A stretch of 64,000 bases of DNA, from positions 907,768-971,767 of the forward strand of contig JACKCI010000001.1 in NCBI GenBank assembly GCA_020634155.1, written 5' to 3'. Positions 32,910 to 53,059 of this stretch are shown here, piece after piece. Source of the DNA: Anaerolineales bacterium (GTDB lineage Bacteria > Chloroflexota > Anaerolineae > Aggregatilineales > J027). The notes beneath the pieces are model-generated. The model worked only from the letters and a program-made list of their open reading frames with translations, was not told the DNA's origin and did no database searches. Every line of letters begins with the position of its first letter. The stretch's first letter is position 1. The translations under genes were made by a program, and so were the position numbers.

Positions 32910-32981
32910 TGCGGGATAGTTTAATCGGCAGAACAGCGGACTCTGGATCCGTCAGTCCTGGTTCGAGCCCAGGTCCCGCAG
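32910..32981 (+). tRNA. tRNA-Gln (anticodon CTG)
   Basis: Manual cloverleaf: acceptor TGCGGGA/TCCCGCA (U1:A72 as in bacterial tRNA-Gln); D-stem GTTT/GAAC; anticodon stem GCGGA/TCCGT with loop CTCTGGA (anticodon CTG at 32943-32945); T-stem CCTGG/CCAGG with TTCGAGC loop; discriminator G; CCA not encoded. Confidence 0.85.
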
Positions 32982-43634: not shown

Positions 43635-44282
43635 TTGCCAACGACAAAATGCACAAACCTACGGTATACTCCCTTTATGAAAGTCTACCGTCAACTCACC
43701 TATGCACTACAACTCATCGCCTCCCTCAATGTGTTGGTGGCGCTGTTCTTGCCTTGGCATACTGAGCATGGCAACGCCCTTGAATTGATGCAACGCCCCC
43801 TTGAAGGCACTCTGCCTTATAGTCTCGTTTCGCCTTGGGTTCTGTTATGGGGTCTACCATTAATTGGTCTGGTAAGCTTGCTGCGAGGAGCTAGTGGCAT
43901 CTTTGACGCACATGCGCCGGGACGTACATGGGCGATTCGCACAAGTCTTTTAGCTGCCATTGTCATGGGTTGGTACTATCTTATCTTTGGCTCAGAAGCC
44001 GATAGCCTCAACATCATCGGTGAAATTCGCTTCGGCTATTGGCTGACGGTTAGTTCTTTGCTCCTTCTGACCTTGTTAATTTTGACTGAATGGCTGCTGC
44101 CAGAATACGACCCTCACCTTGCCCATTTGGCAAAATTGACCCATGATGACCCAGAACGCATCTGGGAAGGCCACTATCGTGTGTGTCCCTATTGTGGCAG
44201 CCCTAATGACCCTGAAAACCGTCGTTGCTCATTCTGTGGCATCACACTCTTTCATGATGAAAGGAAACCCAAACATCGATGA
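43635..44282 (+). CDS. Hypothetical polytopic membrane protein with C-terminal double-CxxC zinc ribbon
   Basis: 215 aa; 4-5 TM helices; C-terminus RVCPYCGSPNDPENRRCSFCG. Confidence 0.45.
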   Translation: MPTTKCTNLRYTPFMKVYRQLTYALQLIASLNVLVALFLPWHTEHGNALELMQRPLEGTLPYSLVSPWVLLWGLPLIGLVSLLRGASGIFDAHAPGRTWAIRTSLLAAIVMGWYYLIFGSEADSLNIIGEIRFGYWLTVSSLLLLTLLILTEWLLPEYDPHLAHLAKLTHDDPERIWEGHYRVCPYCGSPNDPENRRCSFCGITLFHDERKPKHR

Positions 44283-44527
44283 GTAATTCACCCCAACCAC
44301 CCCAACTCCTAACCGCCAAAACATTGACTAAAGCGAACCTTTTGGGTGGTGTGTTGTTTATTCTATTGATTCTCACCGCCACAGGCCTTTACTTCCTGCT
44401 TGGATTAATTGGCTGGGACGCAGGGTCAGCAGGCCGTATTCTGGTAGCACTCGTCGTGAGTCCGCTGGTGGTAGGAATCGGTTTTGCCCTTGTATGGATG
44501 TTGATGCTCAAGAAGACCAATGGATAA
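44279..44527 (+). CDS. Small two-TM membrane protein
   Basis: 82 aa; ATGA start/stop overlap with the upstream gene; two hydrophobic helices. Confidence 0.35.
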   Translation: MSNSPQPPQLLTAKTLTKANLLGGVLFILLILTATGLYFLLGLIGWDAGSAGRILVALVVSPLVVGIGFALVWMLMLKKTNG

Positions 44528-45389
44528 CGATAAACACTACCAACTCCTGAGCCAAAAACTAAGCAAACGCGGTCACCAATTTTTGCCCCTGCTACGCTGT
44601 CCGGTGACGGGTAGTTCGCTCGAAGATCATCATACTCATTTTCAAACCCCTGACGGCTCTCATATTTATCAATTTGAGGCTGGCATTCTGCGTCTATTGA
44701 CGCCCGAACAAAAACGGGCCTTTGCCGCTGAGGAACTGTCCATCTCAACCGAGAATCAAAGTAACGACTGGCAAAGCCCCACTCCTGACGATTTTCGCCA
44801 ACTACCGCAAACTGGCTTAGATGGCTGGCCGCTTGGTTACTGGCAACGACGCGCCGAGATTACCGCCGAGATGTGGCGCGTGATTGAGCATATTCGGGTT
44901 GATGAAGAACGGTTGCCAATTGGCCCAATGGGAAACGCGGTAGATTTTACAGATGACATGGGCTGGATTGCCTATGGTCTCGATATGTCCGGCTATACCA
45001 CCATTGCGGTCAGTCAAAGCATTGGTTCCTATGGATTAGGTGTCTTTGACCATTCGCGCTATCTGCGGGTACAGGCTGCCATCGATAATCCTCCCCTCAC
45101 CCCAGAACAGTTTGACCTTGTTGTCTTTAGCTTCAGCCTCAAAACACCACAACCTACACTGGACCATGCGGTGCGGTTGCTCAAAAAGGGTGGGCTATTA
45201 ATTGTGATGGCAGACAAGGGCAATGAGTCTATTCAGCAAGAGGCCGGAACCGCCCTGCAAAGCCTTGGCTTTGAGGCACGATTCCAGCGCGTGGGAGCAA
45301 TGGGTAATACCTTTAGCCGCACCCTCAAAAATCTGGTCGGCTACCGTCCCGATGTACCGCCTCTAGTGGTTGTACGTCGCCAACGCTAA
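44520..45389 (+). CDS. Hypothetical protein: Trm112-like zinc-ribbon-like N-terminus plus degenerate Rossmann methyltransferase-like domain
   Basis: 289 aa; N-terminal LLRCPVTGSSL (Trm112/DUF343-like); C-terminal DLVVFSFSL and LLKKGGLLIV resemble MTase motifs II/III, but motif I is degenerate. Confidence 0.4.
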   Translation: MDNDKHYQLLSQKLSKRGHQFLPLLRCPVTGSSLEDHHTHFQTPDGSHIYQFEAGILRLLTPEQKRAFAAEELSISTENQSNDWQSPTPDDFRQLPQTGLDGWPLGYWQRRAEITAEMWRVIEHIRVDEERLPIGPMGNAVDFTDDMGWIAYGLDMSGYTTIAVSQSIGSYGLGVFDHSRYLRVQAAIDNPPLTPEQFDLVVFSFSLKTPQPTLDHAVRLLKKGGLLIVMADKGNESIQQEAGTALQSLGFEARFQRVGAMGNTFSRTLKNLVGYRPDVPPLVVVRRQR

Positions 45390-45848
45390 AGACTCCCGCA
45401 ACACCTGTTCAAGCCGATTATGGGTCGGGAAGTCTTCGTCCATACCCACAAAACGCCAGACCACCTGTCGCTCATGGTTCAAGACATAGACACCCAAAGG
45501 CTGGGTTACTTTGGGTTTATCCGGTATACATACCAAATCATCGGTCAGGGTGCGCTGCTCATCTGCATGAAGCACAAAGGGAAGCGGCTCTAGGCTACTA
45601 ATCACAAAACTCCATACGCTGGTATGATTTTCCGGCACCACAAAAAGCGTATTCACACCCATCTTAGAATAGATTGAATGACGACGACGCATGGTGTGAA
45701 TTTGCCCCACGCAGAATGGGCACCACGTTCCACGCAGCACAATCATCATCAACCCATGCTCACCCATTTGCTGATCCAAGGTTATAGTTTGGTTTTGTGA
45801 GTCAATTACCGATAAATTTGGTAAAATATCTCCGATGTTATATCGCAT
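45363..45848 (-). CDS. Redoxin/peroxiredoxin-like thioredoxin-fold protein (AhpC/TSA family)
   Basis: 161 aa; WCPFC CxxC-type motif in the context MMIVLRGTWCPFCVGQIHTM; its 3' end overlaps the convergent upstream gene by 27 bp. Confidence 0.65.
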   Translation of the reverse strand: MRYNIGDILPNLSVIDSQNQTITLDQQMGEHGLMMIVLRGTWCPFCVGQIHTMRRRHSIYSKMGVNTLFVVPENHTSVWSFVISSLEPLPFVLHADEQRTLTDDLVCIPDKPKVTQPLGVYVLNHERQVVWRFVGMDEDFPTHNRLEQVLRESLALATYNH

Positions 45849-45906
45849 TTGCTAAACTCCTGTCTAATGATATAGACGAATTAGTGTTACTCGAGCCTTA
45901 CATCCG

Positions 45907-46938
45907 ATGAAAAAACTCTTTTTTATCTGTGCGCCAACTGATTACCCTTGGACTCGTAGCCTTGCCCATCAATTCTTCAGCATGGGATACCGCGTATACC
46001 TTGAACCACCCGACGAAGCTGATGACGAAAAAGTCCGTGAGCGTACCGCCCGCGCCCTATATAATGCTGAAATCATGATCGCTATTGTCTCCAAAGAAAG
46101 CGCCATTGGCAGTTCTGCTGAGGCATTTGAAGCATGGTGGCGGCCTTTTGTTGATTCGGGACGGCAGGTGATTGCTTGCATCACACCCGACTCACCCGCA
46201 GGCGCTGAAAACTGGATTCCTTACGACCTGATTCGCCGTCCACATGTGGATTTTCGGCGGGCAGGTGGAGCGGCGCGTTTAGCTGAACTGGTCAATAAAG
46301 ATGGCTCCACCACACAAGCACGCCCAGCACACACCAATCATGAGGATGATTACGAAGCCCAGTTTGAACCAGAGCCAGTCGCCGCTTATCCAACCCAACC
46401 CGTCACCCCTGTAAAAGATGAACCCGAGTCAGCATCAAAAACATCCATTATTCGTACTCTGATTGGCTTGGTGGTAGGGTTCATTATGGTATTGGTAATT
46501 TGGCAGGTGGCCCTACAGAGCGACAACGGTGATGCTCTCATTTGGGTAGGCGGATTAGCTATTATGGTGGTCGTAGTTTATTTGATTGGGCGGTGGCGTC
46601 CGCAATCTCGCAGCCAAGCAGCGAAAAAGCTGGTGGGCTATCTAGAGGTTATTTCGAGCGATGATGCCAAGACAAAAGGACGTGTTTATGGCCTCATGAA
46701 CACCTTACACATTGGCTCTGGACGGCGTGCCCAAATCCGCCTTAAGGTTGAGGGAATCGAAAAACAACACTGCACCATCTTTTATGATGGCAAAGCCTAC
46801 TACCTTGAAAACACCAGTGATAGCCGCACGATATTGTATGATCGGCAGCTAGACAGTGGTGAAGTGGTTGTATTGCAGCACGGTGATTTAATTACCGTTG
46901 GGCAAGCCGTAGTCTTGCAGTTCCGTACCCAGCTTTAG
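45907..46938 (+). CDS. TIR-like domain, 2 TM helices, C-terminal FHA domain signalling protein
   Basis: 343 aa. Residues 1-130 show the TIR_2-like pattern (KLFFICAPTDYPW...EIMIAIVSKESAIGSSAEAFEAWW). An acidic/Pro linker follows, then two TM helices (IIRTLIGLVVGFIMVLVIWQV and ALIWVGGLAIMVVVVYLIG). The C-terminus is an FHA fold (GSGRRAQIRL...HCTIFYDGKAYYLENTSDSRTILYDRQL...GDLITVGQ). Confidence 0.6.
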   Translation: MKKLFFICAPTDYPWTRSLAHQFFSMGYRVYLEPPDEADDEKVRERTARALYNAEIMIAIVSKESAIGSSAEAFEAWWRPFVDSGRQVIACITPDSPAGAENWIPYDLIRRPHVDFRRAGGAARLAELVNKDGSTTQARPAHTNHEDDYEAQFEPEPVAAYPTQPVTPVKDEPESASKTSIIRTLIGLVVGFIMVLVIWQVALQSDNGDALIWVGGLAIMVVVVYLIGRWRPQSRSQAAKKLVGYLEVISSDDAKTKGRVYGLMNTLHIGSGRRAQIRLKVEGIEKQHCTIFYDGKAYYLENTSDSRTILYDRQLDSGEVVVLQHGDLITVGQAVVLQFRTQL

Positions 46939-46955
46939 CTTGCGGCCTTCTGTTG

Positions 46956-46972
46956 AGAGGCTGTTTGAAAAG
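46956..46972 (+). repeat. IS left terminal inverted repeat (AGAGGCTGTTTGAAAAG)
   Basis: Matches the reverse complement of 47795-47811 at 16/17 positions. Confidence 0.75.
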
Positions 46973-46999
46973 TGGGGTAGGATAAGATAAAGTAAGGGC

Positions 47000-47356
47000 A
47001 TGAACGAGCGAAGAGTATACCCCAGTGATTTGACCGATCGAGAATGGGCGCTATTGGAGCCACACATTCCACCCCCCAAAGCAGGTGGAAGACCGCGCAG
47101 CAGTGACATGCGCGAGATCGTGAATGCCATTTTCTATGTGCTGAAAACGGGCTGTCAATGGCGTTGGCTACCGCATGGCTTTCCGCCAGCCGGGACGGTT
47201 TATCATTACTACAATACATGGCGCAAAGATGGAACATGGCGACGGATCAATGATGCGCTACGGGAAACATTGCGGGAGAAACTGGGTCGTGAAGCCACTC
47301 CGAGTGCGGGGAGCATTGATAGTCAGTCCATCAAAACGACCGAAAAAGGGGGGTAA
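47000..47356 (+). CDS. IS5-family transposase OrfA (N-terminal DNA-binding part)
   Basis: 118 aa; LTDREWALLEPHIPP...GRPR...REIVNAIFYVLKTGCQWRWLP, typical of IS427-group OrfA. Confidence 0.8.
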   Translation: MNERRVYPSDLTDREWALLEPHIPPPKAGGRPRSSDMREIVNAIFYVLKTGCQWRWLPHGFPPAGTVYHYYNTWRKDGTWRRINDALRETLREKLGREATPSAGSIDSQSIKTTEKGG

Positions 47357-47793
47357 GAGGCTATGATGGTGGCAAGCACATCAAAGGTCGCAAGCGCCAT
47401 TTGGTGGTCGATACGGAAGGGTTTGTGTTGCGAGCTTTCGTAACTGAGGCTAACTACCACGATGGTACTGTCGGTACGTGGCTCTTAGATGACTTGAGTA
47501 ATCGCTTTCCGCGTTTAGAAAAGTTATGGGCCGATGGCTCTTATCGTGGCACGTTTGTTGACCATGCTGCTGAACGTGGCATCACGGTTGAGATTACGAC
47601 CCGCTTGAGTGACCAACCCGGCTTTCAAGTCATTGCCCATCGTTGGGTGGTAGAACGCACCTTCGCATGGCTCAATACCTACCGTCGTCTCAGCAAAGAC
47701 TACGAGTATTGGGTCTACGCATCCGATGCCACTATCTACGCCTGTATGAGCCATCTTATGCTTCGCCGTTTGGCTCGTTTGGCTCCCACCTGA
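47350..47793 (+). CDS. IS5-family transposase OrfB (DDE catalytic part), expressed as OrfAB fusion by -1 frameshift
   Basis: The -1 frame relative to OrfA is open from about 47350 (…GVRGYDGGKHIKGRKRHLVVDTEGF…) through the DDE region (…HDGT…WADGSYRG…ERTFAWLNTYRRLSKDYE); the slippery run A5G6 lies at 47343-47353. Confidence 0.75.
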   Translation, partial: GVRGYDGGKHIKGRKRHLVVDTEGFVLRAFVTEANYHDGTVGTWLLDDLSNRFPRLEKLWADGSYRGTFVDHAAERGITVEITTRLSDQPGFQVIAHRWVVERTFAWLNTYRRLSKDYEYWVYASDATIYACMSHLMLRRLARLAPT

Positions 47794-48136
47794 CCTTTTC
47801 AAACGGCCTCTGAATATCAGGCGAGCTAGACTTAGTGGCGGGGGTAGCAGCAGTGCTATCGCCCTTGGCGCTGGTATCGGTGGTCTCGCTCTTAGCGCTG
47901 GTGTCCGTGGCATCACCGCCTTTGGTGGTGCTAGTCACACCCGCGCTGTTCTTGCCCCGGCTGTCGGTCACGTACCAACCAGACCCTTTGAACACCACGC
48001 CAGCAGGTTGAATGACTCGAAAAACCGTCCCCTCTGTCTCACACACGGCACAGGTCGTTAGGGGATCATCATTAAAACTCTGCTTGACCTCAAAGGAATT
48101 ATCACATGCACGACATTGATAGGCATAAACTGGCAT
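47756..48136 (-). CDS. FmdB-family zinc-ribbon protein with IS-altered C-terminus
   Basis: N-terminal MPVYAYQCRACDNSFEV...CAVCETEGTVFRVI zinc ribbon; low-complexity Thr/Ser/Asp tail; the last 17 codons (RPFEKVRWEPNEPNGEA) are encoded by the IS right end. Confidence 0.6.
   Translation of the reverse strand: MPVYAYQCRACDNSFEVKQSFNDDPLTTCAVCETEGTVFRVIQPAGVVFKGSGWYVTDSRGKNSAGVTSTTKGGDATDTSAKSETTDTSAKGDSTAATPATKSSSPDIQRPFEKVRWEPNEPNGEA
47795..47811 (-). repeat. IS right terminal inverted repeat (rc AGAGGCCGTTTGAAAAG)
   Basis: Reverse complement equals the left IR with one T/C mismatch. Confidence 0.75.
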
Positions 48137-48241
48137 CGCTCAAACACTCCCTTTTGCGGTATTTCCGTTAAAAATTCTACAGCGCATTGAGTTCGTATTC
48201 AAGCGATGCTTTGAATTTCTTGTGCAATTCTGATAGTTCTC

Positions 48242-51200
48242 TCATCCACCACCGGGGCGGAAGAAGCTCGGTTGCTCCTCAGCAGGTTGTTGACTACGGC
48301 AGATTTGCCAACTTTCACCCTGCTTAACCACATGCAGAGACGGATAGCCTGACGCGACCACTTCGCTTTGGGTTTCGGTACCGGGTTTGAAAACCATCAC
48401 CCCACCCCAATTAATTGTGCCTGAGTTACCTGCCAACTCGACGCTAATCTCTAGCTCGCGGAAATCCGCACCAAGATAGGGCTGGGCAACAAGGTTTTGG
48501 AAAGCTACAGCATCAATCGGGTAATCGGCTTGGGTTTTGTCTTCCGCACAGAATAACGCATTGTACAAATCAAAGTTGCCCGTTGTCAGAGCCTGCCAAT
48601 AGGCATAGCCTACTTCACGCACAACCCGCACATCAGTGGCATCCGTTTCAGCCGTAGACCCAATCTCGGTTCCATCATCCACATAGAGGGGGTCAGGAAT
48701 AGGGGCCAATCCACCACTAATACCCAAAGGCGGGAAAATGATAATGCGTGAGGTTTGCGGATCAGCCACATACACCTGCCCATCTTTTCCAAAAGCGATA
48801 CCACCGACAGTCTCCATACCTTGCGGGAAGCCATCCGGTGGCACCAGAGGTGTATTAAAGGACAAAACCGCCCCCCCCCGCAGGTCATAGGCCACTACTC
48901 GCGGGCCATTGTTACTTTCACTGGCATCCATATCTGATACCAATATCAATGTGCCATCTGGTGAGATAGACAGATAAGGACGATGCACAGAGTTCCGCGC
49001 ACCTGCCCACATATTGACATCCCAACTCATAACAAACGTACCATCACGGCGGAAGGCCGAGATTTTTTGATTCCACGTCTCGGCAACATAAAGCTCACCA
49101 GTAACCGGATGAATAGCCAACCCAACAGGTTCTGGCTCGGCTTGTAGGCCATTGCCTTGGGCAGTAATGTCGTATAGGTGCTGATAGTTGGCATCATAGA
49201 CACGAATGCGGTGCCCGCCTGTATCAGCTACAAAGATATTGCCTTCGTTATCAACTGCCACATCACGTGGGCCATAGAGGGACATCGGGCCACCATCATC
49301 TGGTGTACCAAAGGTGCCAAAGACCCCCACCATCTCGCCCGTCGGTGAATAGATAACAATACGGTGATTCCATGTATCCGCCACATAGATATTGCCATCA
49401 TGTGGACCAACCGCAATCCCCCAAGGTTCATTGAGGATTTCAGGGCCGCCAAAGACGTCAATGGAAGTGCCATCTGGGGCGAACTTCACAATACGATGAT
49501 TGCCCGTATCAGCAGCATAGACATAACCATCCGTATCAGATGCGAGGTCACGCGGGTTGAGTAACTCGCCGACGCCAAAAGCCGATTGAGCATTAATCTC
49601 TTGATAGACAGTATCTTCAGGATCAGGAATCAAGCGTTGGGCAACGCTCTGCCCACGCAAACCAGCATCCCAGATCTGAACGGCAAAGTCCTTCCGCACA
49701 TACATATACAACTCATCGGACACTGGCCAGCGCTCAATATTGAACTGCGGGTCATTGCGGCAACTATTGGTTATACGTTGCACACAGTTGGGGTCAAGGA
49801 CTCGTTCATCAGGGTCTGTTGAACCTTCGGGCTGGATATAGCACGCGGGCGTTTCACGCTCCACACATAGGGCCGTCGCATAAGAACCATAGTCGCGCTC
49901 CCACCAAATATCCCAAAGAGACTGTCGATAATACTTGGCTGAAGGGTTGACATCATCTGGCTCAAAGATATTGGTGATTCGGTCAGCATTGAGGTTGAAA
50001 TACTCCTGCATCGGCCACCACAAGCGAATCAGATCAAAGCGGTAGTAGTCCTTGCCGAGTATCCGCTCAATCTCCGTATTCTTGCGATTGCCCGCAATGA
50101 CGACCAACGCGCCCTCAATATTGCCTATTTGATTCTTGACATCCTCCCCAGTCCCCCACAGATAACGCTTGTCCGTGAAATCCCGCAAGTACCAGAGCAT
50201 GGGCCAACTGGAGTCATCATCATAGGCGACATGGATGTTCATGCCTTCGGGACTATGGTCAGCAAAATACATTAAGTCAGCCACCACATCCTTAACGGCG
50301 GGGCCAGCATGGGCATACACACCAAATTCGGTAGGATAGTCATAGTTAATGTAGGTAAATAGCCACGCTGCCCGCACCGTCAACATCGCCAGCAGTAAAG
50401 CAAACGCCCCTATGAACAAACGCCGCGCTTGGTCAAAACCGACATCCGCCGTTAAGCGCACACCAAAATACCCAGTGATTGCCAACGCAATAAGAGCCGA
50501 TATCCATCGCCCAGTAGCGTCAAGAGCCATCTGAGTTTGGCCTTGAAAAGGCAGATTATTACCTGTGGCATAGGGTAAGGCCAGTTGCGATAGGGCCACC
50601 AGAAACACAGGAACCACAAACAGCAGCAGTATCCACCCACTGCGTTTAAGCGCATCCCAGCGAATGCGCTCCACTACGCTCCCGATATACCAGCCACCAG
50701 CCAAGGTTAGCGGTAAGGAGAGATGGGTGGTCAACCAAGGCATTTTCTCACCAGCCATCGTCAAGGCCACTAAAATCAGAATGCCCCAGTAGCCAACTAA
50801 GGCCAAGAATGGCAAGCTACCGAGGTATTCATGATCGGTCTCGCTCATCAAGCGGTCTTGTTCAGGGTTATAGGCATAACGCGATACTCTGCCTTCACGC
50901 TGTCCCCATTCAGGCGATACCCACGCAGGACTGTCCTCACTGTCCACATTCGATTCATCTATTAGAACCTCGTCAGCTTCAATCAGAATGGGTTCATCAC
51001 CTACTACGATTTCCTCGCCCTCAGCCTGTTCACTTTGAGCAGCACGTGCTGCGGCAGCATTGAGCATAGCCTGTTGACGGCTACGGTAGCGGAAATCGAA
51101 GAAATGGGAGACTCCGGCAAAGCCCGCAAAAGCCGCCAAAATTGACGGCAAGAACTCATAGACGGGAAGTTGCACGAGTACATAATAGTATTGGGGTTGG

Positions 51201-53059
51201 CTTCCGCGCCGCACATCTTGTTGTTCGAGCCAATAGCCTAGCGACCCAATCAAGCCTGTGCCAATGCCGTTGCCATTGGTAAAAAAGGTTGTGAAAAAGA
51301 CAAGGAACAAGACGCCAAAGGCTGCCGCGGCAATCGGCCAAACTCGCCAATTCCACGCCAAACCCACCGCCGCACTCACCATCAGAAATGGAATCGCAGT
51401 GACAATCGCCGCTTGCACCGTTTCCAGCGGCAATGGTGCTTGGTCAAGGGTATAGCCTGCCCAAAATAAGGGGAAGGCCGCCAGCCAAGGAAAGACCATT
51501 GACCCCATAACAATCAATATGTCAAACGCTGGTTGGCGATTTAGCACATCCCACCAATTGGTGAGCAGCCGTGTAATCAATACACCCGTCACTGCCAGCG
51601 ATAGCACAACCCATGTGAGGAATATCGGGGCATTGTCATGTTCAAGGGTTTGGGAAACATCCTCAGCATTGGGGTCAATCGCTACAGGCCCCGTATTAGT
51701 CTCATCTGAGGGGTGGCTATGACGCTCCAAGACGAGCAAGATGCTCATAAACACAAACGCAATGACGAGCAGCGCCACAATGTCTTGCCATGTCGCCCGC
51801 TTGATAATGCCAATGAGGACAATACTAAAGACAAGGAACCCTAACGGAACAATCGTCCATTCCATAAAGATGTTCAGTTGGTTCTCAGCTAGTTTGGGTA
51901 TAAGCGCATTGGTTACCGGGTCATAAGCTTCAATGAAAATAGTGGCGGGCTTAACAATATCTAAGATGACCATACCCCATAACGCCATCACACTCCCAAC
52001 AATCGCCCCGGCAGCAACCAAGAGCATCGTTGACCGTGTGTTGTAGTAAATCGCGTTGGTGACCATGCGAACCGTGATAGGTAGCCCACCGCGCCGATTA
52101 AAAGCGATACGGATGAGGCCAAAAAACTCGACAATCGCCAACGCAATTAGCACACCATATAGTTGCAGAACGCGGTCTGGCCCTATCTCATGAGAGCCGA
52201 CATGAAAGCCTAAATCGCCAGAAATCAAACCGGAGTCTGTCTTATAGAACTCGTACCACACGCCGCCGATGGTGTATCCAAGTATCCCTACCCCAGCCAA
52301 AATAACTAGGTAGGCCAAAGGATAGAGCCACCAAGGAGGGGTCTCACGGCGTGGCGGTAACACTGCCGTAGCGTCCGCATCAACAGGCTGTCGGAAAGCT
52401 CCCCGCATAATGTCTTGTACCAAGCGCAGGAGCCAATACAGCGTCAAGAAGCTTCCGAAAATCGCCACATACATAAAGGAGACTTCTTTGGAGGCCAACA
52501 TCAACAGGAGCGCTCCGCTGAATACCGGAATCCAAATCGGGCGGCGCGGTTTCTCACCGTCTAGATATTGGAGCGTGGCATACAACATCACCATTGCAAA
52601 GAACATGGAGGGGATGTCGTGGCGAATGTAGCGGCTGTAGTACAAAATCATCGGGGAGATGAGAATGCCCACCGCTGCCAGCACCGCCCCTACCTTGCCC
52701 AACCAGCGCCGAAACAATAGGGGGAACATGACCAACGCCACCCCCAGCAACGCTGGGTAAATCCGCGCACTAAAATCGCTGGGGCCAAACAAGAAATAGA
52801 AGAATGCCGTTGCATGGAACAACAACGGCCCGTGCATCAAGGGGGTGTGGTCAAAACGCCCATATTCGTACAGTTCCCACGAATAATAGGTGTGCAAACT
52901 CTCGTCATGGCTCATCACCCGTAGGCCTAAATCCCAGAAGCGACTCAATACCGCCAAAATCAAAATGGCGGTATAGATGACAGCTTCCCAATTCAGGCTA
53001 TAGACACGGGCTAATACATGGTCGAAAGGCTGTTGACGGGTAGATGTTGTCGTTGCCAT
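48242..53059 (-). CDS. Giant integral membrane protein: N-terminal GT-C/PMT-like polytopic domain (companion family of Chlor_Arch_YYY, TIGR03663-like as I recall), 6-bladed NHL-repeat beta-propeller, then C-terminal about 150-aa domain
   Basis: 1605 aa; the N-terminal 500 aa has 12 or more TM helices with a DE-containing first loop (MSHDESLHTYYSWELYEYGRFDHTPLMHGPLLFH); more TM helices around residues 750-900; six NHL repeats ((Y/I)(V/F)AD(T)xNHRI(V/R)x(F/Y) recurring: YVYAADTGNHRIVKF, IYVADTWNHRIVIY, IFVADTGGHRIRVY, LYVAETWNQKISAF, VYVADPQTSRIIIF). Confidence 0.7.
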   Translation of the reverse strand: MATTTSTRQQPFDHVLARVYSLNWEAVIYTAILILAVLSRFWDLGLRVMSHDESLHTYYSWELYEYGRFDHTPLMHGPLLFHATAFFYFLFGPSDFSARIYPALLGVALVMFPLLFRRWLGKVGAVLAAVGILISPMILYYSRYIRHDIPSMFFAMVMLYATLQYLDGEKPRRPIWIPVFSGALLLMLASKEVSFMYVAIFGSFLTLYWLLRLVQDIMRGAFRQPVDADATAVLPPRRETPPWWLYPLAYLVILAGVGILGYTIGGVWYEFYKTDSGLISGDLGFHVGSHEIGPDRVLQLYGVLIALAIVEFFGLIRIAFNRRGGLPITVRMVTNAIYYNTRSTMLLVAAGAIVGSVMALWGMVILDIVKPATIFIEAYDPVTNALIPKLAENQLNIFMEWTIVPLGFLVFSIVLIGIIKRATWQDIVALLVIAFVFMSILLVLERHSHPSDETNTGPVAIDPNAEDVSQTLEHDNAPIFLTWVVLSLAVTGVLITRLLTNWWDVLNRQPAFDILIVMGSMVFPWLAAFPLFWAGYTLDQAPLPLETVQAAIVTAIPFLMVSAAVGLAWNWRVWPIAAAAFGVLFLVFFTTFFTNGNGIGTGLIGSLGYWLEQQDVRRGSQPQYYYVLVQLPVYEFLPSILAAFAGFAGVSHFFDFRYRSRQQAMLNAAAARAAQSEQAEGEEIVVGDEPILIEADEVLIDESNVDSEDSPAWVSPEWGQREGRVSRYAYNPEQDRLMSETDHEYLGSLPFLALVGYWGILILVALTMAGEKMPWLTTHLSLPLTLAGGWYIGSVVERIRWDALKRSGWILLLFVVPVFLVALSQLALPYATGNNLPFQGQTQMALDATGRWISALIALAITGYFGVRLTADVGFDQARRLFIGAFALLLAMLTVRAAWLFTYINYDYPTEFGVYAHAGPAVKDVVADLMYFADHSPEGMNIHVAYDDDSSWPMLWYLRDFTDKRYLWGTGEDVKNQIGNIEGALVVIAGNRKNTEIERILGKDYYRFDLIRLWWPMQEYFNLNADRITNIFEPDDVNPSAKYYRQSLWDIWWERDYGSYATALCVERETPACYIQPEGSTDPDERVLDPNCVQRITNSCRNDPQFNIERWPVSDELYMYVRKDFAVQIWDAGLRGQSVAQRLIPDPEDTVYQEINAQSAFGVGELLNPRDLASDTDGYVYAADTGNHRIVKFAPDGTSIDVFGGPEILNEPWGIAVGPHDGNIYVADTWNHRIVIYSPTGEMVGVFGTFGTPDDGGPMSLYGPRDVAVDNEGNIFVADTGGHRIRVYDANYQHLYDITAQGNGLQAEPEPVGLAIHPVTGELYVAETWNQKISAFRRDGTFVMSWDVNMWAGARNSVHRPYLSISPDGTLILVSDMDASESNNGPRVVAYDLRGGAVLSFNTPLVPPDGFPQGMETVGGIAFGKDGQVYVADPQTSRIIIFPPLGISGGLAPIPDPLYVDDGTEIGSTAETDATDVRVVREVGYAYWQALTTGNFDLYNALFCAEDKTQADYPIDAVAFQNLVAQPYLGADFRELEISVELAGNSGTINWGGVMVFKPGTETQSEVVASGYPSLHVVKQGESWQICRSQQPAEEQPSFFRPGGG

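Follow-up and report, generated by a model that had tools for sequence, protein, structure and literature searches.

How does a small zinc-ribbon gene come to end inside a mobile element, a few nucleotides short of the point where it would have met its neighbour? The question is raised by a stretch of 64,000 nucleotides from an Anaerolineales bacterium (assembly GCA_020634155.1, contig JACKCI010000001.1), called here the window, to which coordinates refer unless a relative is named. An earlier note, made from the letters alone, had proposed that an IS5-family insertion sequence (IS) lies in the 3' end of a gene coding for a zinc-ribbon protein of the FmdB family, which converges on a gene combining TIR and FHA domains. 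Profile matches uphold both identifications: the transposase, once its two reading frames are joined, scores 239.6 bits against the NCBIfam model NF033580 (transpos_IS5_3, "IS5 family transposase"; cut-off 110 bits), while the zinc-ribbon protein reaches 56 bits with TIGR02605 (FmdB family zinc ribbon protein; cut-off 31.3) and 46.3 bits with PF09723 (Zn_ribbon_8; cut-off 34.4). The overall explanation, to which we give a probability of about 93%, is that an apparently intact IS5-family IS inserted near the 3' end of the FmdB-like gene and duplicated a TGA triplet as it did so.

The element occupies 46957-47810, measures 854 bp, encodes its transposase on the plus strand, and is recognized by its terminal repeats, its target-site duplication, Pfam and NCBIfam profile matches and homology to related copies. 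Its left terminal inverted repeat (46957-46972, plus strand; GAGGCTGTTTGAAAAG) and its right one (47795-47810, plus strand; CTTTTCAAACGGCCTC, reverse complement GAGGCCGTTTGAAAAG) are 16 bp long each and identical at 15 of 16 positions, pairing being lost beyond that length; the same pair of arms was recovered by a repeat search. Next to each repeat stands the triplet TGA, at 46954-46956 on the left and 47811-47813 on the right (no strand is assigned to it), and it is on this triplet that both flanks of the window meet the uninterrupted sequence of relatives. Homology to seven related copies begins and ends 1-4 nt from the same boundaries. The limits and the TGA duplication put forward in the earlier note are confirmed. 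The target DNA around the triplet (46942-46956 and 47811-47825) is itself partly palindromic, including GCCT...AGGC, with a weak complementarity of 8 of 15 flanking positions between its two sides when TGA is counted; this is why the arms extend to 28 nt at 82% in the repeat search. Visual comparison of the flanks of related IS copies revealed no such palindromy. In composition the element does not stand out, with a G+C content of 52.1% against 51.8% for the window.

What did the site look like before the element arrived? Removal of the IS and of one TGA restores the sequence ...GCGGCCTTCTGTTGAATATCAGGCGAGC..., in which the minus strand encodes a protein of 114 residues ending in ...KSSSPDIQQKAAS-TAA (...DIQQKAAS), with 16 nt between the duplicated triplet and the native stop. 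On the plus strand this stop appears as TTA (46935-46937), and it overlaps the TIR-FHA stop, TAG (46936-46938), in a 4-nt TTAG. The earlier note had arrived at this same end, and at the same overlap, by reconstruction; it had also advised a comparison with related genomes free of the IS, and these display the uninterrupted site. All ten contigs of the nearest two lineages are syntenic and lack the IS, and in each of them the Zn_ribbon_8 gene runs towards the TIR-FHA gene and overlaps it by 4 nt. At the level of the base, the ten read ...AGC-TAA-AG..., where TAA ends the FmdB-like gene and the overlapping reverse-complement TAG ends the TIR-FHA gene (CTAA), as in the reconstruction. Among the corresponding proteins, P0002 and P0003 (114 and 115 aa, 88% identity) end in ...DIPQKAAS and P0004 (101 aa, 76% identity) in ...DAPQKAAS. 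Both L001 (85.3% over 8.5 kb) and L002 (73.6% over 10 kb) align with the reconstructed window as a single uninterrupted stretch running through the junction; when several sequences are aligned together, the two flanks of the IS join up at the duplicated triplet, with no gap between them and nothing but that triplet in common. In the relatives the FmdB strand reads CCA at the place of the window's TCA, which argues that the TNA target arose in the lineage of the window; the same change also accounts for a tail residue Q at a position occupied by P in the relatives. It is also in this lineage that the insertion seems to have occurred, since the two independent IS-free lineages carry the site in frame, the IS and its target-site duplication are seen in the window alone, and repeated precise excision would be a far less parsimonious account.

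The consequence for the zinc-ribbon gene can be read directly. The present open reading frame (ORF; 47756-48136, minus strand; PF09723 and TIGR02605) codes for 126 residues and is identical to MCB9436188.1. Residues 1-109 are native, and the right end of the IS supplies residues 110-126 (RPFEKVRWEPNEPNGEA); the protein therefore ends in ...SSPDIQ followed by RPFEKVRWEPNEPNGEA, and its IS-derived tail reads ...QRPFEKVRWEPNEPNGEA. ORF and reconstruction agree with the earlier claim that the insertion fell 16 nt before the native stop, exchanging five residues, QKAAS, for 17 encoded by the IS. Beyond the element, at 46935-46953 on the minus strand, remains the orphaned native 3' end, severed by the IS, which encodes (Q)QKAAS and the TAA complementary to 46935-46937. 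On one point the earlier note must be corrected. It had the ORF terminate inside the right inverted repeat; the present TAA (47756-47758) lies 52-54 nt from the end of the IS and 37 nt inward of that repeat (47795-47810), on the strand opposite the final codons of the second transposase frame. The insertion has spared the start of the protein, its two CxxC pairs and the invariant core (...RVIQPAGVVFKGSGWYVTDSR...). With the proteins of its family (TIGR02605 CxxC_CxxC_SSSS; Zn_ribbon_8) the present protein shares the N-terminal CxxC...CxxC ribbon, the VIQPAGVVFKGSGWYVTDSR core and a low-complexity tail rich in Ser and Thr, whereas a 17-residue IS-encoded C-terminus is found in the present allele only. 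Homologues span 94-149 aa, and from about residue 65 onwards their tails differ in both length and sequence. As only the end of this naturally variable tail was altered, function should be little affected, if at all.

Could the resemblance of the new tail to an IS end be fortuitous? The earlier note had singled out, as the observation that would make it so, related genomes with the same C-terminal sequence and no IS. In a search covering 5.8 billion proteins, MCB9436188.1 (126 aa; from an Anaerolineales bacterium metagenome-assembled genome, MAG, on a contig of 2.18 Mb) forms a singleton cluster, and the IS-derived tail was found in no other protein, so that the refuting observation was not made. 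Its public annotation is that of a normal 'zinc ribbon domain-containing protein'. An exact-protein look-up of the window allele returned nothing on record.

Did the event matter to the two genes that it separated? The TIR-FHA gene (45907-46938, plus strand; 343 aa, two hydrophobic stretches between the two domains, TAG stop at 46936-46938) is an intact coding sequence, untouched by an IS that starts 18 nt past its stop. The suggestion that an outward-facing IS end now sits beside the 3' end of this gene holds as geometry, not as a functional role. One may nevertheless imagine that the insertion is functionally important, by uncoupling the 3' ends of the two genes, which would have influenced each other through antisense transcription or termination, or through a new tail that alters FmdB activity. 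The convergent pairing is indeed kept in six lineages. Moreover, a consensus scan found no terminator-like site between the TIR-FHA stop and the first transposase frame, which begins 61 nt downstream on the same strand: transcripts running on past the TIR-FHA gene would presumably cover the transposase in sense, those of the FmdB-like gene in antisense. Against this, the overlap varies. It measures 4 nt in the nearest relatives and 26 nt in L091, and it gives way to gaps of 103 nt in L092 and 75 nt in L094, all with the same convergent pair; because it is not conserved in distant relatives, the shared stop is no sign of a control device, and the downstream control that the earlier note had ascribed to the overlap finds no support. 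A second convergent pair of the same block overlaps by 27 nt (a methyltransferase gene at 44520-45389 on the plus strand and an AhpC/TSA gene at 45363-45848 on the minus strand), as it does in L001 (6121-6147), and these tail-to-tail overlaps look like a genome compaction habit of the lineage. The replaced tail belongs to a region variable in length and sequence. Finally, scanning 45700-48400 yielded three promoter-like sites (2.5 expected) and one terminator-like site (2.5 expected), which is the chance level of shuffled sequence, and such consensus scans do not count as evidence in a Chloroflexota genome. A functionally important insertion is, in view of all this, quite unlikely. We would grant even less to the bolder conjecture that the FmdB-like gene and its TIR-TM-FHA partner form a functional pair with mutually regulating 3'-overlapping transcripts in the six Chloroflexota lineages, of which the IS would have created a natural uncoupling mutant; if it were true, the transposase would fall under TIR-FHA read-through control and FmdB antisense control. 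A host effect that is probably near neutral is the reading that we retain.

Is the element itself alive? Its transposase is spread over two frames. The first, orfA (47000-47356, plus strand), codes for 118 residues matching DUF4096 (PF13340, 108.6 bits), the N-terminal domain of IS4/IS5 transposases. The second, orfB (47323-47793, plus strand), lies in the -1 frame relative to orfA and holds the DDE catalytic part (Pfam DDE_Tnp_1 and DDE_Tnp_1_2); it is open from 47323 to a TGA stop at 47791-47793. The two frames can be joined at an A5G6 run close to the end of orfA (47343-47353, plus strand; AAAAAGGGGGG), the candidate -1 frameshift site, to give a protein of 264 residues. Only this fusion matches NF033580 over its full length (profile positions 1-257 of 258), DUF4096 being in orfA and the first aspartate, D138, past the junction. 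Ten IS5 transposases with a single ORF can be aligned with it over the whole length, and no gap opens where the frames meet, TTEKGG before the junction being followed by VRGYDGGK. D138 (VVDTEG), D179 (WADGSY) and E219 (VVERTF) fall in columns that are invariant among these ten homologues, and they are the putative catalytic triad. Expression by -1 frameshifting at A5G6 is what we infer from this arrangement. The RNA around and downstream of the run (47330-47420, plus strand) has a predicted fold of -24.9 kcal/mol (z = -2.47), a stability reached by 5 of 200 shuffled sequences; the fold might stimulate the shift, and is suggestive only.

The split may also be read as a lesion. The two frames would then result from an inactivating deletion of one nucleotide in the run of G, and the element would be an immobile relic. 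Homopolymer runs are mutation hot spots, and common places for sequencing errors as well; the full-length database proteins nearest to the fusion, of 260-275 aa, are transposases read from a single ORF (a protein search with the fusion gave mostly such relatives, at 54-64% identity); and the window contains one copy only. Against this stands the comparison with related copies: all seven, although some 30% diverged in DNA, keep the -1 relationship of orfA and orfB at the same A/G-rich run, from which it follows that the two-ORF state is a design under conservation, not damage. Apart from the shift both frames are open, inverted repeats and target-site duplication are intact, the invariant residues have been retained, and the same layout has been described for the IS427 group (PMC3281130). 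A dead relic is therefore unlikely, and we keep to an element that looks competent for transposition, its open frames, conserved residues and intact ends all pointing that way.

A scan with the fused transposase, over one genome per prokaryotic species, returned 187 related loci, the closest of them in MAGs of Anaerolineae, Aggregatilineales and Chloroflexia at 62-78% amino-acid identity; no identical copy was present among the species-representative genomes, the best reaching 78%, and an exact-protein look-up of orfA in the assemblies collection found no identical gene product on record. The seven copies compared in detail (L011 and L012 from Aggregatilineales contig CBDCER010000003.1; L015, L019 and L022 from Anaerolineae; L017 from Aggregatilineales; L025 from Chloroflexia) measure 832-857 bp and have a consensus end GA(G/A)GCC(A/G)TTTGA(A/G)AAG with TNA flanking triplets. 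The element of the window resembles them in length, ends, TNA flanks and frameshift run, and differs from them in its DNA, at 68-72% nucleotide identity, and in its protein, at up to 78% amino-acid identity for the best protein segment. It would presumably count as a distinct IS under ISfinder naming practice. The TNA motif and the GAG ends are traits attributed to the IS1031 group. The attributes expected of the IS5 family are all present: a full-length profile match, a putative D/D/E triad, bounding inverted repeats and a target-site duplication whose empty counterpart exists elsewhere.

Within the family, two groups come close. Members of the IS427 group are 832-865 bp long, with inverted repeats of 13-21 bp and direct repeats (DRs) of 2-4 bp (PMC3281130, Table 2), and possess two overlapping ORFs with a frameshift motif, the complete DDE triad being found only in the fusion (PMC3281130). 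The window element agrees with them in its 854 bp, its 16-bp repeats and its 3-bp DR, as well as in its overlapping ORFs joined by a putative frameshift, which alone assembles the full DDE. It departs from most Paracoccus members listed, which duplicate 2 bp and not 3 (IS1248, ISPaes1 and ISPpa6 are examples of the group; PMC3281130). The single-ORF homologues looked at share only 54-63% of their protein residues with it. The IS1031 group usually has a single transposase ORF (PMC3196728) and a 3-nt insertion site (PMC2516522). Here the agreement is in the 3-nt target (TGA in the window; TAA, TTA and TAA in L012, L022 and L025) and in a similar size of about 850-900 bp, whereas the window element and its seven relatives, all with two ORFs, depart from the single-ORF rule. 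Elements mixing features of IS427 and IS1031 are known (PMC2516522). The IS appears to be an IS5-family member most like the IS427 and IS1031 groups, a placement that follows published group descriptions.

Several observations weigh against the explanation as a whole, or against parts of it. Frameshifting, for this particular element, is read from the layout of its sequence. As regards recent activity, blastn and tblastn over the 64 kb of the window found the element once only, with no diverged copy besides. Matching TNA triplets flank both sides of L012 (TAA), L022 (TTA) and L025 (TAA), but the triplets are unequal in L011 (1455-2317, TCA/TGA), L015 (1452-2310, TAA/TGA) and L019 (1449-2286, TAA/TCA); copies may have recombined, the duplication may have decayed, or it may effectively be one of 2 bp. 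The nearest IS-free relatives are only about 85% identical in DNA, and two metagenome scans, with a 24-mer of the left flank and a 25-mer of the left end of the IS, recovered no same-species site, be it empty or occupied. Finally, with a MAG as source, a strain variant or a consensus artefact is possible. It might even be argued that the occupied site was created by assembly, or belongs to a minority variant of the MAG, with the IS misplaced by repeat mis-assembly, since IS elements are classic mis-assembly points in metagenomes. Yet the 3-bp duplication is perfect, removal of the element restores frame and colinearity to the base, and the contig is 2.18 Mb long. Duplication and exact restoration being together the signature of real transposition, a chimeric join is unlikely, and an artefact of assembly is highly improbable in our view. 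Genuine insertion of an IS5-family element remains by far the best account of the locus.

A block spanning 43635-53059 is conserved in six Chloroflexota lineages (L001-L005, L086-L094), with a gene order that comprises a giant membrane protein of about 1600 aa (PMT_2/NHL), the FmdB-like gene, the TIR-FHA gene convergent with it, AhpC/TSA, the methyltransferase, two small membrane proteins and glycogen phosphorylase. In the TIR-FHA protein of the window, Pfam recognizes FHA at 43.6 bits and TIR_2 marginally, at 28.6 against a cut-off of 28. Its syntenic orthologues (341-348 aa) have both TIR_2 and FHA, except that in L094 only TIR_2 is recorded, with no FHA match. A defence-system interpretation was considered and dropped, PADLOC giving no match for the TIR-FHA or FmdB proteins. 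Rfam, at its gathering threshold, recognizes a single feature in the window, a tRNA gene (32910-32981, plus strand) distant from the IS.

Put in sequence, the events at this locus would have been as follows. The FmdB-like and TIR-FHA genes would have ended on their shared TTAG when an apparently intact 854-bp IS transposed into a TGA target of the TNA type, 16 nt upstream of the FmdB stop, and duplicated the triplet. The FmdB-like frame would from then on have run 52 nt into the right end of the IS, antisense to orfB, and thereby traded QKAAS for the 17 residues encoded there, leaving the zinc ribbon, the FmdB core and the whole TIR-FHA coding sequence unchanged. The two convergent genes now lie 857 bp further apart, and transcription of the FmdB-like gene would proceed antisense through the transposase, whose orfA and orfB would presumably be translated as one protein through a -1 shift at A5G6.

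This is a textbook event, which carries little weight beyond annotation and opens no long-standing question. For the annotation it means that MCB9436188.1, with its 126 residues, is better read as an FmdB-family protein of 114 residues altered by an insertion. For the IS5 family it adds a new and apparently intact member, of a lineage that recurs in MAGs of Anaerolineae and Aggregatilineales. And for the host it would be a clean case of an IS that settled with almost no effect, at the very end of one gene of a convergent pair.

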